From: a virus
Lineage: Duplodnaviria > Heunggongvirae > Uroviricota > Caudoviricetes
Virus record (IMG/VR): IMGVR_UViG_2711768014_000003
DNA: 9,837 nucleotides
Strand: one strand, 5' to 3'
Shown here: piece by piece, positions 2,580 through 5,483 of the stretch
Layout: each line of letters starts with the position of its first letter
Numbering within the stretch: the stretch's first letter is position 1
The notes under the pieces: model-generated
What the model was told of the DNA's origin: nothing
The model's input: the letters and a program-made list of their open reading frames with translations, nothing else
Databases searched by the model: none
Translations under genes and position numbers: made by a program

Positions 2580-2583
2580 GTGC

Positions 2584-2613
2584 TTGACCAGACACATTGT
2601 CCGGGGCTATATT
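2584..2613 (+). promoter_or_regulatory. Candidate late promoter (pR'-like): TTGACC, 18-nt spacer, TATATT
   Basis: The -35 hexamer TTGACC (2584-2589) and -10 TATATT (2608-2613) start 5 nt after the Q stop codon, the canonical position of pR' in lambdoid phages. A hairpin (CGCCAG-N6-CTGGCG, 2621-2638) lies in the predicted initial transcript. Confidence 0.5.
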
Positions 2614-2674
2614 CCTCACGCGCCAGCAAAATCTGGCGTCGGGATTGGAACCCCGGATAGAGACCGCGACAGAC

Positions 2675-2698
2675 ACACGCCGCGAGCGTGTTTTTTAT
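2675..2698 (+). terminator. Intrinsic terminator (tR'-like) downstream of the candidate late promoter
   Basis: Stem ACACGC (2675-2680), loop CGCGA, stem GCGTGT (2686-2691), followed by a T-run (2691-2697). It would end a short (~75 nt) 6S-like leader RNA unless antiterminated by Q. Confidence 0.5.
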
Positions 2699-2824
2699 TG
2701 TCGTATGCACGCGCACATCTGAATTATGGTGGGGCGCATGGGGGAGCTGAAAAGCTCGCCGGTCGGTTTCCCGGTAGTTCCAACCCTGTGCGTCTCACCA
2801 CCCGATGATTGGAACCTGACGGTG

Positions 2825-2853
2825 TTGACAGTTTCAGGTTTGCAGTTTACATT
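2825..2853 (+). promoter_or_regulatory. Near-consensus sigma70 promoter (TTGACA, 17 nt, TACATT), likely for the ORF6N gene
   Basis: TTGACA at 2825-2830, exact 17-nt spacer, TACATT at 2848-2853. It is followed about 35 nt later by a weak hairpin (CCACA 2889-2893 / TGTGG 2905-2909) plus a T7 run (2910-2916), then about 145 nt of leader before the ORF6N start. Confidence 0.4.
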
Positions 2854-3059
2854 TCCCCGCGGTGCTCAAAACACCTCGAAAGCGGTATCCACACCCGATA
2901 GCCATGTGGTTTTTTTGTGTCCAGAATTCTTGGTTTATGACCGGGTGTGCGGCTAATACAATACCAGCAATGGAAATACGCCCGCCGACTTTCGACGGTT
3001 TTGAGCGCCCGGTCACCCTCTCAAAAGGGGTAAATCAAAATATTCGAAAGGACATGTCT

Positions 3060-3623
3060 ATGAATCGCACGTCTATTGAAAAACTCCCGTCACTTACGCA
3101 TAACCATCTTCCTGTCATGACAACAGAGCTGCTGGCTGATTTGTACGGAACAGAGCGCCAGCGTTTGACAAACAATTTCAATCGAAACAAAGAACGGTTT
3201 ATAGAAGGTAAACATTTTTTCCTGATAGAAGGTGATGCGTTACGAGAGTTGAAGAACGAAAACTCTTTAAGAGTTTCTGTGAAAATTGCCCGTAACGTTC
3301 GCTCCCTCATCCTCTGGACAGAACGTGGCGCAGCCCGTCACGCCAAAATGCTCGAAACCGATCAGGCGTGGGAAGTGTTCGAAAAACTGGAAGACTGTTA
3401 TTTCAACCAGAAACAGCCACCAGCGGCACAAAACACATCTATCGAAAATGATGGATGCGCATTACTGAGCCACTTCGATAAACACGGTCAGGTTGAGTTC
3501 ACGGAAAAGGTACCCGCCGATGCGATGGTATGTACTCTGGAACGGTTTAAATTTTATCTGGAGCAACACGGGTGGATCGTTGCCCGTAAAGAGCAACTGG
3601 TGGAGCGGTTGATGCGGTTTTAA
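3060..3623 (+). CDS. ORF6N-domain protein (KilA-N/antirepressor-like DNA-binding domain) with uncharacterised C-terminal domain
   Basis: ORF-track 2862..3623. The N-terminal region (HLPVMTTELLADLYGTERQRLTNNFNRNKERFIEGKHFFLIEGDALREL) fits the ORF6N consensus as I recall it (V..T..LA.LYG...R.L...RN..RF.EG..F.L). Start chosen at ATG 3060, with AAAGGA 7 nt upstream; the ATG at 3054 is in frame but too close to the SD. The upstream 64 codons of the ORF are probably untranslated. Confidence 0.7.
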   Translation: MNRTSIEKLPSLTHNHLPVMTTELLADLYGTERQRLTNNFNRNKERFIEGKHFFLIEGDALRELKNENSLRVSVKIARNVRSLILWTERGAARHAKMLETDQAWEVFEKLEDCYFNQKQPPAAQNTSIENDGCALLSHFDKHGQVEFTEKVPADAMVCTLERFKFYLEQHGWIVARKEQLVERLMRF

Positions 3624-3698
3624 AAATTTTTTCCGAAAACTTTACGATCGTAAAAAGTTGAATATCCTGTTAAGAGTGGTTACTACGCCACACAGCTT

Positions 3699-3726
3699 AA
3701 ACCCGCCGATGAGCGGGTTTTTTTAT
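3699..3726 (+). terminator. Intrinsic terminator after the ORF6N gene
   Basis: Stem AAACCCGC (3699-3706), loop CGATGA, stem GCGGGTTT (3713-3720), followed by TTTT (3721-3724). Confidence 0.6.
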
Positions 3727-3774
3727 ACCTGAAAAACGGCACAGGACGTTAAACGTGCTGGTGGTCAGATGAGT

Positions 3775-3803
3775 TTGCAGATGTGATGACATATGGTTAT
3801 TAT
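3775..3803 (+). promoter_or_regulatory. Candidate promoter for the tRNA array (TTGCAG, 17 nt, TATTAT)
   Basis: The -35-like TTGCAG (3775-3780) and -10-like TATTAT (3798-3803) sit about 10 nt upstream of the first tRNA 5' end (3813). Confidence 0.35.
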
Positions 3804-3812
3804 TCTGCCTCC

Positions 3813-3889
3813 GGCCCTTTAGCTCAGTTGGTCAGAGCGAGCGACTCATAATCGCCAGGTCGCTGGTTCAAGTCCAGCAAGGGCCACCA
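3813..3889 (+). tRNA. tRNA with anticodon CAT; sequence resembles E. coli ileX-type tRNA-Ile2 (lysidine, AUA-decoding), although the anticodon alone would read as Met
   Basis: Manual cloverleaf: acceptor GGCCCTT/AAGGGCC, D-arm GCTC...GAGC, anticodon loop CTCATAA (CAT at 3847-3849), T-arm GCTGG-TTCAAGT-CCAGC, discriminator A, encoded CCA. 77 nt. Confidence 0.85.
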
Positions 3890-3890
3890 A

Positions 3891-3967
3891 CCACCACTAG
3901 CTCATCCGGATAGAGCATCAACCTTCTAAGTTGACGGTGCGAGGTTCGAGTCCTCGGTGGTGGGCCA
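3891..3967 (+). tRNA. tRNA-Arg (anticodon TCT, decodes AGA/AGG)
   Basis: Manual fold: acceptor CCACCAC/GTGGTGG (unusual C1-G72), D-arm GCTC...GAGC, anticodon stem TCAAC/GTTGA with loop CTTCTAA (TCT at 3925-3927), T-arm CGAGG-TTCGAGT-CCTCG, discriminator G, encoded CCA. It starts 1 nt after the previous tRNA. Confidence 0.8.
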
Positions 3968-3969
3968 GC

Positions 3970-4045
<76 letters not shown>

Positions 4046-4048
4046 TAT

Positions 4049-4123
<75 letters not shown>

Positions 4124-4570
4124 GCGAGATTTGAGACGAAGGTTGTTATTTGCACTGACACAATATTGTGTGGGAATGTCTGACTCCTTACCATCTCCTG
4201 TTCTGTGATGTTGTTTTGTTGCAGTTCCAGTGCTCTTTTTTCAGCACCAGAATGGTGCATTGTCGGTCAGGTTACGTAGTGAACCTCTGGCAGGGGACTG
4301 ATGATTCATCATTCTGGTGTTGTAAATATCTCTTCGGACAACTTACAAAATATTCTAAGCAAACCCCGGGAACACACTCTTAACTGCCTTGGCTGGCGGT
4401 TTTTTGTACAGCGCTCGGTATGTGTGAGCTGGAAATCAGATTTTGCATGGACTGGAATCATGCTGTTATTTAGGGGCGAAGAACTGGCTTTTTCTTCCGC
4501 CTTCTCACCAGTAACGATTAGAAAAATAATGAAATGCCCCCCTCCGGGGAGGAGGACCGTAGAAAAAAGG

Positions 4571-4628
4571 ACCCGCCAGCAAAAACATTGGGGATGAACA
4601 GCTTTCGCTACTCAGATTGCTGGCGGGT
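4571..4628. repeat. 12-bp perfect inverted repeat (ACCCGCCAGCAA, 34-nt spacer, TTGCTGGCGGGT)
   Basis: Arms at 4571-4582 and 4617-4628 are exact reverse complements. On the minus strand the structure is followed by CCTTTTTTCT (complement of 4561-4570), so it could act as a minus-strand terminator or a structured RNA/protein-binding element. Confidence 0.5.
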
Positions 4629-4736
4629 AAAGTTCCTCATGAATTAAGAATGCTACGCGATCTTTTTTAATGGAAATGAAAATTATTGTCAATTAGTCGT
4701 GCGTGTTTTTTCATACAATATTGGTAAAGGTGATTC

Positions 4737-4769
4737 AGGCCATCAGAGTTTTGCTGATGGCCTTTTTTC
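4737..4769 (+). terminator. Strong intrinsic terminator about 35 bp upstream of the holin gene
   Basis: Perfect 10-bp stem AGGCCATCAG (4737-4746) / CTGATGGCCT (4754-4763), 7-nt loop, followed by TTTTTT (4763-4768). Confidence 0.6.
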
Positions 4770-4803
4770 TTTCCGATAGCACAGGTCTGTCGGGGGGCGG
4801 GAT

Positions 4804-5019
4804 ATGTATCAGATGGAAAAAATATCAACAGGCATTGCCTACGGCACCTCCGCCGGCAGTGCCGGCTACTGGTTTTTGCAGTGGTTGGATCAGGTCAGTC
4901 CATCACAGTGGGCTGCGATTGGTGTGCTGGGAAGTCTGCTTCTGGGGCTTCTGACTTATCTGACAAATCTGTATTTCAAAATAAGAGAAGACAAGCGTAA
5001 GGCTGCGAGAGGTGAATAA
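4804..5019 (+). CDS. S: Class II holin, phage 21 S-type pinholin with dual-start motif
   Basis: The 71-aa product ([71 protein letters not shown]) is near-identical to my recollection of phage 21 S21: two TM segments, charged C-terminus, Met1/Met4 dual start (alternative start 4813). The stop overlaps the endolysin start (TAATG). Confidence 0.9.
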
Positions 5020-5166: not shown

Positions 5167-5483
5167 CTGTATGTCANNNNNNNNNNNNNNNNNNNNNNNN
5201 NNNNNNNNNNNNNNNNNNNNNNNNNNNNNNNNNNNNNNNNNNNNNNNNNNNNNNNNNNNNNNNNNNNNNNNNNNNNNNNNNNNNNNNNNNNNNNNNNNNN
5301 NNNNNNNNNNNNNNNNNNNNNNNNNNNNNNNNNNNNNNNNNNNNNNNNNNNNNNNNNNNNNNNNNNNNNNNNNNNNNNNNNNNNNNNNNNNNNNNNNNNN
5401 NNNNNNNNNNNNNNNNNNNNNNNNNNNNNNNNNNNNNNNNNNNNNNNNNNNNNNNNNNNNNNNNNNNNNNNNNNNNNNNNNNN
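5167..5483. other. Run of 317 N (assembly gap or masked sequence)
   Basis: Directly visible. It interrupts the endolysin 3' region and the 5' regions of Rz and Rz1. The apparent in-frame continuity across the Ns in the ORF track is an artefact. Confidence 0.99.

Follow-up and report, generated by a model that had tools for sequence, protein, structure and literature searches.

The interval studied here, positions 4124-4803 of the virus record IMGVR_UViG_2711768014_000003, spans exactly 680 base pairs (bp) between the last base of a tRNA-Gly(UCC) gene and the ATG of a holin gene at 4804. It forms part of a 9,837-nucleotide (nt) stretch of DNA, referred to below as the window, which comes from a lambdoid prophage of the Escherichia type and includes its late control and lysis region. 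Our analysis indicates that the interval is probably non-coding regulatory DNA at the moron slot of the prophage, composed of two recombined modules that would provide a structured tRNA trailer, an antisense small RNA (sRNA) and terminators overridden by the antiterminator Q. The two non-coding modules of this mosaic lie at 4124-4407 and 4423-4803. Terminator-like sites are about four times as frequent as expected in this part of the window, with 8 between 3400 and 5100 and 1.9 +/- 1.2 in shuffled sequences. A previous sequence-only reading had described the interval as poor in open reading frames (ORFs) and rich in structure; that observation is confirmed, and the interpretation given with it is, as a whole, partly supported. 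That reading had not listed the long hairpin that spans 4238-4326, a terminator at 4382-4407 on the + strand, or the - strand reading of a 12-bp repeat.

The interval encodes no protein. None of eight candidate ORFs, taken from either strand, matched Pfam or PHROGs at E <= 1, and the nine E. coli genomes that contain the interval at an identity of at least 99% all have no RefSeq annotation there. The three ORFs that had been named and set aside as unconvincing (4168-4383, 4301-4597 and 4703-4954) are present in the program-made list, and the judgement that no convincing ORF exists in 4124-4803 holds, with frames 4168-4383 and 4301-4597 broken by in-frame stops and shifts in trailers that are 67-79% identical. 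A small protein gene could nevertheless be hidden in the interval, such as a micropeptide or the 63-amino-acid ORF of AR_0086-type prophages, and PGAP does call the latter, as hypothetical protein WP_000502162.1, in about half of the listed genomes with the 87% allele. We regard such a gene as highly improbable. In the alleles of the window, L207, pEC244, EC958 and ATCC 25922 the ATG has become ATT and the frame is broken by indels, the 63-amino-acid ORF has no family match in Pfam or PHROGs, and it would run through t2, the terminator that precedes the holin.

The interval had also been placed at the position where Shiga toxin (Stx) phages carry toxin cargo, and the possibility had been raised that it is the scar of a lost cargo. 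Such a scar would be what is left of a moron gene, for a toxin, an esterase or another product, that had stood between tRNAs and holin. The position is correct: in the Stx2 phage Min27, Q is followed by tRNAs, stx2AB, an esterase gene, two small ORFs and a holin gene, whose product is 83% identical to the holin of the window. A scar would also fit a mosaic with a clear junction, which we found at 4408-4422. Yet both halves are intact, conserved and widespread in many prophages, apparently under structural constraint rather than decaying, and they have no nucleotide similarity to stx, an esterase or any other phage cargo gene, nor does any ORF give a protein-family signal; we consider a decayed cargo gene very unlikely. 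In the comparison with phage records, which had been proposed to see what occupies the site elsewhere, megablast against 50,697 records gave no match and sensitive blastn gave only short partial matches. None of the complete E. coli genomes contains the whole arrangement, the closest being mosaics of the same parts.

The left module (4124-4407, + strand) is a conserved, structured 3' trailer RNA sequence that directly follows tRNA-Gly(UCC) (4049-4123, + strand) and ends at an intrinsic terminator, t1. We scanned IMG/VR with an anchor on the 3' end of tRNA-Gly(UCC), which leaves the downstream sequence unbiased, and found homologous trailers in 64 of 106 distinct prophage contexts. The family is also present in 233 of 5426 complete E. 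coli genomes (near full length in 77), where the copies are always chromosomal and almost never annotated. Homology to the left part of the interval runs from 4124 to about 4330, or to 4407 in some relatives, and includes the LT-IIb phage and phage vB_EcoS-683R6. A search with the Rfam models (cmscan of 3600-4900, both strands) gave nothing in the interval at the gathering threshold or at E <= 10 except tRNA-related matches and spurious matches of microRNA type on the hairpin, and the trailers of 12 related loci matched no Rfam family.

A tRNA-Gly trailer RNA family that is absent from Rfam is well supported by covariation. In a full-length alignment of eight trailers, with identities down to 67%, the consensus fold has 63 predicted pairs, 10 of them with compensatory changes. 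The first hairpin of the trailer is the 14-bp perfect palindrome ACACAATATTGTGT (4158-4171, + strand; -7.4 kcal/mol, z = -2.6), which exists as the sequence-only reading described it but lies 35 nt past tRNA-Gly and not immediately after it. Its ACACA/TGTGT stem becomes GCGTA/TACGT in relatives, with compensatory changes from A-U to G-C and from U-A to C-G. The long hairpin (4238-4326, + strand), of about 26 bp with a small apical helix, folds with -40.4 kcal/mol (z = -5.2) on the + strand versus -23.2 kcal/mol on the - strand. Among 29 distinct sequences of this hairpin 98.3% of the cells pair, six pairs are changed on both sides and 15 vary on one side only through wobble pairing; none of 500 shuffles reaches the observed values, and in slid controls pairing is 31-58%. 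The G·U cells amount to 169 and the A·C cells to 2, and pairing drops to 78.5% when the - strand is read; because of this excess of G·U over A·C we conclude that the long hairpin folds as a + strand RNA, on the strand of the tRNAs. The compensatory changes among module 1 homologs, and the pairing of the long hairpin kept through six two-sided changes, bear out the earlier suggestion that the interval could encode non-coding RNA, for which an analysis of covariance or conservation had been proposed as a check.

The long hairpin is separated from t1 by an unpaired stretch, UAAGCAAA(A/C)C..GG.AA (also written UAAGCAAAC/ACC..GGRAA), that is conserved among trailers only about 70% identical overall. 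The terminator t1 (4382-4407, + strand) has a 7-bp stem and U6 (-10.6 kcal/mol, z = -2.9), and trailers only 67-72% identical have a CCGCC...GGCGG-U8 terminator in its place. Part of the interval is indeed a tRNA-operon trailer, as had been proposed; the trailer's own terminator is t1, which had not been listed, and not the one before the holin. We take module 1 to be the 3' external spacer of a tRNA operon under constitutive transcription, apparently selected as RNA.

Three further observations concern the trailers. Some prophages (L027, L028, L062) contain a second, 5'-truncated copy that starts inside the long hairpin with no tRNA before it, which suggests that the long hairpin may be a recombination breakpoint. 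In phage 683R6 (L004 3257-3331) and in c-type trailers, a t1-like terminator is directly followed by a leftward terminator, CACGAGTATTCCAGGATGCTCGTG-U7, which would form another convergent pair; the leftward partner has no Rfam match. A pattern scan of genome contigs (AATGGTGCAT, a gap, CNGRTGTTGT) was too loose and gave chance matches from unrelated phyla, and only Shigella flexneri looks real among its matches.

The operon that the trailer would belong to is an array at 3813-4123 (+ strand) with a CAU-anticodon tRNA followed by Arg(UCU), Thr(UGU) and Gly(UCC), found with ARAGORN and Rfam and annotated in RefSeq for an identical array. A consensus scan places a candidate sigma-70 promoter (3775-3803, + strand; TTGCAG, a 17-nt spacer and TATTAT) about 8 nt before the first tRNA. 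Its hexamers and 17-nt spacing are kept while the spacer sequence varies (L016, L101, L163, CFSAN029787), which would be the signature of a working sigma-70 promoter. The motif TTGCAR-17-TATTAT precedes arrays that start with a CAU-anticodon tRNA, and transcription would start at the tRNA. Arrays in related loci have 2-4 tRNAs, and the clustered array always ends in tRNA-Gly and this trailer; in two related loci ARAGORN reports a doubtful, distant fifth tRNA. The first tRNA of the window (3813-3889) is Met (CAU) according to ARAGORN and tRNA-Ile in the RefSeq annotation of the identical interval's array; we take it to be a lysidine-type Ile2, like ileZ of Stx phages.

By analogy, the most likely role of module 1 would be that of a stable processed RNA, of the kind of the 3'ETS (external spacer) RNAs, and the main rival is a purely cis-acting role in processing or termination. 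The known example, 3'ETS-leuZ, is reportedly a regulatory RNA excised from a tRNA operon's 3' external spacer, as Lalaouna and colleagues are said to have described in 2015. In data from enteropathogenic E. coli (EPEC) it is listed as an Hfq-bound sRNA. Like 3'ETS-leuZ, the window trailer adjoins the last tRNA of its operon and is bounded at the far end by an intrinsic terminator, and a candidate operon promoter is present; unlike it, the trailer is phage-borne, 5-6 times longer and dominated by a 26-bp hairpin. At the end of the tRNA gene cluster of phage T4 stand stable, structured RNAs, called 'species 1 and 2', which have no known function and are co-transcribed with the tRNAs, as our trailer would be, although T4 is an unrelated phage and the likeness is one of description only.

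A short sequence in the variable part of the trailer resembles the R1 seed of the sRNA GcvB. The look-alike, TGTGATGTTGTTTTGTTG (4204-4221, + strand), matches K-12 gcvB 66-83 at 17 of 18 bases on the same strand, and the score of the local alignment with gcvB, 31, is higher than that of all 500 shuffles (maximum 30). The stretch is present in the window-type allele only, and because it occurs in one allele and the sequence is rich in G and U, chance is a serious possibility. One could picture the trailer as a new class of regulatory RNA in which a conserved scaffold (hairpin 1, the long hairpin, the unpaired motif and the terminator) holds an exchangeable seed cassette between its hairpins, here a GcvB-like one that would act as a repressor or would lure away sponges of GcvB, SroC or AgvB for example, as a decoy. 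We think this improbable. If it were true, the prophage would constitutively supply a GcvB mimic that retunes amino-acid and peptide uptake by the host, and the GcvB-like trailer would mirror AgvB, the known phage anti-GcvB RNA.

Module 1 ends at a recombination junction (4408-4422), and the widespread holin-linked homology begins at 4423 with module 2 (4423-4803), a non-coding segment. Copies of module 2 that are 84-87% identical occur in 1427 of 5426 E. coli genomes (about 26%), on chromosomes and plasmids; about 1,500 E. coli records match, and in intact prophages the copy lies directly upstream of a class II holin. Relics without holin and endolysin are found on ColV-type plasmids next to iss and in ExPEC (extraintestinal pathogenic E. 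coli) islands near papI (EC958, ATCC 25922). The relic loci (L228 2501-2809; L229 and L230 2501-2818) are flanked by insertion sequence (IS) fragments. In EC958 and ATCC 25922 the relics lie about 2 kb from papI. In the plasmid and island relics alike, the leftward promoter/terminator unit described below is intact and t2 is degraded. A search for complementarity between papI mRNA and module 2 gave nothing convincing.

The leftward unit of module 2 ends at an intrinsic terminator (4563-4628, - strand) with a 12-bp perfect stem, an inner hairpin with a GAAA loop and a U6 run at 4570-4563 (-28.8 kcal/mol, z = -5.8). Because the A-run is upstream on the + strand, this element is predicted to terminate only leftward transcription. 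The 12-bp perfect inverted repeat with a 34-nt spacer (4571-4582 / 4617-4628) had been seen in the sequence-only reading and is as described there, except that it belongs to the opposite strand. A second leftward hairpin (4536-4557, - strand) is terminator-like, with 9 pairs, -15.5 kcal/mol and a U-rich tail; it is weak (z = -1.7) and its strand preference differs between alleles. At the other end is a promoter-like site (4664-4692, - strand) with TTGACA at 4692-4687, a 17-nt spacer and TAAAAA at 4669-4664. The TTGACA is invariant in all alleles, and the promoter of the AR_0086 allele (TTGACA-18-AAAAAT) scores 10/12 in the consensus scan. The promoter-like site and the terminator delimit a putative antisense sRNA of about 95 nt (4563-4657, - strand).

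Conservation within module 2 follows this unit. Mean pairwise identity among six alleles is 0.92 for the leftward terminator (4563-4630), the most conserved block, and 0.91 for the promoter-like block (4664-4692), with 0.74 for 4631-4663 and 0.66 for 4489-4535. Phage anti-sRNAs have a 5' body that varies more than the promoter and terminator on either side of it (PMC4104026), and it is because module 2 has this pattern that we predict the leftward sRNA; the comparison suggests that module 2 carries an antisense sRNA gene of about 95 nt.

Convergent sRNA genes at the moron site of lambdoid phages have been demonstrated by experiment (Tree et al. 2014, PMC4104026). We mapped STnc100 (+ strand) facing AsxR (- strand) in Min27 with Rfam, and in an AR_0086-type prophage STnc100 (+) faces a PapR-like unit (-) immediately left of a module 2 copy; in the window this STnc100/PapR-like pair is replaced by the tRNA array and trailer. 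The pairs of STnc100 (RF02076) with AsxR/AgvB (RF02703/RF02702) or PapR share with our interval the slot downstream of the late promoter pR' and upstream of the lysis genes, and the layout of a rightward RNA with its terminator facing a leftward sRNA with a terminator of its own. They differ from it in that the rightward partner in the window is a tRNA trailer and the leftward partner an undescribed sequence. No covariance-model match to AsxR or AgvB was found in 3600-4900 on both strands at E <= 10, whereas in Min27 AsxR was recovered with this library at 88 bits. STnc100 has no match in the window at E <= 10, and its model finds STnc100 in L002, L200 and Min27 at 114-208 bits. PapR (RipA) of UTI89 was reconstructed from published primers (Khandige et al. 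2015, PMC4546395), and the window has none of the 5', middle and terminator sequences derived from the primers; L200 and L291 have them, L002 has them in part, and the 5' part is also present in Min27 (L443).

The AR_0086-type prophages have the promoter of the PapR-like sRNA left of the junction point instead, and the junction lies about 16 nt upstream of that promoter's position. The window keeps, at 4437-4457, the motif CAGATTTTGCATGGACTG (CAG, an AT-rich part and CTG) although the PapR-like gene is gone; in AR_0086-type prophages this position is about 83 nt upstream of the PapR-like start, where a partial Lrp site has been described (Khandige et al. 2015, PMC4546395). In the AR_0086 prophage itself (L002), STnc100 lies at 3698-3886 on the + strand, and the leftward unit has a promoter TTGCAA-18-TATTAT at 3981-3952 and a terminator GCCCGTGCCTCCCAGCGCGGGC-U6 at 3914-3893. 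Its middle and 3' end are common with UTI89 PapR and its 5' part is different, so that the unit looks like another conserved 3' end with an exchangeable 5' end. In Min27 (L443) the first 67 nt of the PapR knockout primer, which include the PapR promoter and 5' end, have a 100% match at 4372 to 4306 (- strand). AsxR (4233 to 4181, - strand) lies just downstream of this match, so that PapR and AsxR seem to come from one leftward locus, as overlapping or allelic products.

There is also a likeness in placement to PasA and PasC, Hfq-dependent sRNAs of the EPEC strain E2348/69 (Pearl Mizrahi et al. 2021, PMC8550237; preprint by Zhu, Shabalina and Storz 2026, 10.64898/2026.05.13.724894). We located PasA, PasB, PasC and PasD1 of this strain by their published coordinates. 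Like the window candidate, PasA and PasC are leftward, about 80 nt long and 200-300 bp upstream of a class II holin with a rightward terminator in between, and their terminator stems share a GCCAGC/GCUGGC core with it; the 34-nt loop of the window terminator is a difference. With leftward genes placed 150-300 bp before a class II holin as the measure, the window candidate runs from 4657 to 4563 (- strand) before the holin at 4804, and PasA runs from 4000 to 3916 (- strand) before the holin at 4214 in L008. In sequence, blastn at word size 9 finds no similarity to PasA or PasC in 4124-4803, and local alignments compared with shuffles are not significant (p about 0.09 for PasA and 0.5 for PasC). 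PasB was discarded as a comparison since it lies in the tail genes and is irrelevant, and none of PasA, PasB, PasC and PasD1 is similar to the interval. Full-text literature searches with sequence strings of pR', the trailer and module 2 returned nothing relevant. The window would work like the moron-site sRNA systems and is a member of none of the named families.

The right end of module 2 carries t2 (4737-4773, + strand), an intrinsic terminator 31-40 nt before the holin start. The sequence-only reading was right about this element: a perfect 10-bp stem (4737-4746 / 4754-4763) is followed by TTTTTTCTTTC, and the U-run ends about 34 nt before the ATG (-17.3 kcal/mol, z = -4.1). GC-rich hairpins with a U-run stand 35-55 nt before the holin gene S in PhiR5_2, prophages PP2 and PP4 of E2348/69, 683R6, the LT-IIb phage and the Stx2 phage Min27, and their stems differ between phages, for example GGCCATCAG/CTGATGGCC versus GGACCATCGG/CCGGTGGTC. 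In relics without the holin, t2 has mismatches. Because the terminator is present with different stems elsewhere and is degraded in holin-less relics, we regard t2 as a conserved part of the lysis cassette. The holin that follows (4804-5019, + strand) is a class II holin of the P21/Stx type with 71 amino acids and a dual-start MYQM motif (PF04971, E 1.5e-35), with 83-93% identity to the holins that Stx phages and other lambdoid phages encode. The first holin codons (4807-4831; AUGUAUCAGAUGGAAAAAAUA, the dual-start region) are 72% complementary over 25 nt to the 3' arm and U-run of t2 (4754-4778), and in the centroid fold the U-run pairs with the A-run. Such a pairing could act as an sdi-like switch between the two holin starts.

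A terminator at this place had been taken to imply that lysis depends on read-through with Q, and the comparison with the K-12 prophage DLP12 agrees. The window Q (2172-2579; PF06530, E 2.7e-52) is 82% identical to QuuD of DLP12, and the DLP12 sequence that precedes essD by about 120-200 bp has 88% identity to window 3641-3722. By this homology, 3641-3680 (+ strand) would be the late promoter pR' with the start of its leader (TTTACG at 3641-3646, a 16-nt spacer and TATCCT at 3663-3668), followed by a tR'-like intrinsic terminator of the short pR' transcript (3699-3727, + strand; 8-bp stem and U7, -12 kcal/mol, z = -3.3). Similar terminators are found 45-110 nt past the Q genes of three other prophages (loci L002, L004, L008). 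In tR', t1, t2 and the leftward terminator alike, a GC-rich stem is directly followed by a U-run, as in predicted intrinsic terminators. Because pR'/tR' matches DLP12 and Q is 82% identical to QuuD, lysis would require Q-dependent read-through of tR', t1 and t2, which we infer from the established Q mechanism of lambdoid phages. The Q control of lambda, 82 and DLP12, and the Stx phage layout of Q, tRNAs, stx and S, resemble the window in the same Q family, a homologous pR'/tR' sequence, tRNA genes after tR' and the same holin family downstream; the window differs by an isrK/C4 and ORF6N module between Q and pR' and by a cargo slot that is only non-coding. The pR' leader (3668-3677) is complementary to the trailer (4374-4383) over 10 nt; we rejected this as chance, as it is not kept in other contexts of the same trailer.

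These elements suggest the following course of events. In the lysogen, host RNA polymerase would start at TTGCAG-17-TATTAT (3775-3803) and transcribe the four tRNAs and the 285-nt trailer, stopping at t1 (4382-4407). The trailer would fold into a small hairpin, a variable region, the long hairpin of about 26 bp, the unpaired stretch and the terminator, and tRNA processing may release it as a stable RNA, either an sRNA of the 3'ETS type or a processing or stability element. On the - strand of module 2, the promoter-like site and the tandem terminators would give the antisense sRNA of about 95 nt, converging on t1. Transcription independent of Q, with pR', the tRNA promoter or any moron promoter as its origin, would be stopped before the lysis genes by tR' (3699-3727), t1 and t2. 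After induction, Q (2172-2579) would modify polymerase at pR' (about 3641-3680), and the modified polymerase would ignore tR', t1 and t2, so that the holin, endolysin and packaging genes could be expressed. That the predicted transcripts accumulate, are processed and act in trans is our extrapolation from these features.

The same features could also make up a purely cis-acting insulator and processing region with no stable or trans-acting RNA, which we consider rather unlikely. The long hairpin would then be an RNase III site, or a site that blocks exonucleases, for the tRNA precursor or the late mRNA; t1 and t2 would only block read-through, and the leftward terminators would only block stray antisense transcription from the lysis region. 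Every terminator is compatible with insulation. RNase III cuts duplexes of the kind seen here, nearly continuous over 26 bp, which suits this explanation, as does the lack of a match to any known sRNA family. A bare terminator, however, has no need of the unpaired stretch before t1, which is conserved at about 70% overall identity, and mere insulation fits poorly with a leftward promoter-like block as conserved as the terminator, with a leftward unit kept in relics that lack the holin to be insulated, and with experimentally proven sRNAs at the same slot and strand in related prophages.

Several points weigh against our preferred explanation, that of two recombined modules with a structured trailer and an antisense sRNA. 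Every transcript of the interval is predicted from sequence. The leftward -10 of the window allele is poor (TAAAAA, with no final T) and goes undetected in the scan, a point in favor of the cis-acting alternative, and the pR' hexamers are weak (8/12), below the threshold of the consensus scan. Two changes in the leftward terminator, C to T in pEC244 and CA to TT in L207/L213, favor pairing on the + strand, and the module 2 alleles, only about five at 84-87% identity, are too few for covariation. About half of the long-hairpin sequences were collected by a pattern inside the 3' arm, which fixes those columns; the informative variants come from the tRNA-anchored set. The b-type trailers, which are common, have no t1 at the place that corresponds to it; phage 683R6, the single b-type locus that was scanned, has a t1-like terminator farther downstream, at about 360 nt past tRNA-Gly. 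With these points counted, we still hold regulatory DNA of two modules to be the probable explanation.

The rest of the window has the gene content of a lambdoid prophage. Upstream of the interval are a DnaB-type helicase (46-1578), RusA (1832-2203), Q, an inserted RNA module recognized by Rfam (2607-3022) and an ORF6N antirepressor-like gene (2862-3623). The segment from 2580 to 3623, between the end of Q (2579) and the presumed late promoter (3641), is an immI-like module with a promoter TTGACC-17/18-TATATT at about 2584-2613 and, by Rfam, isrK (2620-2696), c4-a1b1 (2607-2659), the C4 antisense RNA (2722-2805) and sRNA-Xcc1 (2939-3022). It has the arrangement of the Gifsy-1 IsrK/AnrP type and sits where DLP12 has nmpC, so that an insertion parts Q from the pR' sequence in both elements, nmpC in DLP12 and the isrK/C4/ORF6N module in the window. 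Downstream of the holin a run of 307 N bases (5177-5483) masks most of the next gene, presumably the endolysin, and ORF entries that span it are artefacts. After the N run come HNH, small and large terminase and portal genes.

The moron slots of pathogenic E. coli hold sRNAs that rewire the host, AsxR, AgvB, PapR and the Pas RNAs among them, and the present analysis adds two unannotated candidates. The first is a structured RNA family tied to prophage tRNA arrays, present in about 4% of complete E. coli genomes and in many IMG/VR prophages. The second is the leftward unit near the holin, present in about 26% of E. coli genomes, including the ColV-type iss plasmids and the island relics of sequence type 131 (ST131) and ATCC 25922. 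The pre-holin terminator is a shared feature of the lysis cassette that varies in sequence and includes the Stx2 phages, and it bears on how tightly the lysis of toxin phages is coupled to Q. If the RNAs are expressed, they would extend the catalogue of phage-borne regulators, and the trailer would be a second functional tRNA-operon trailer besides 3'ETS-leuZ.

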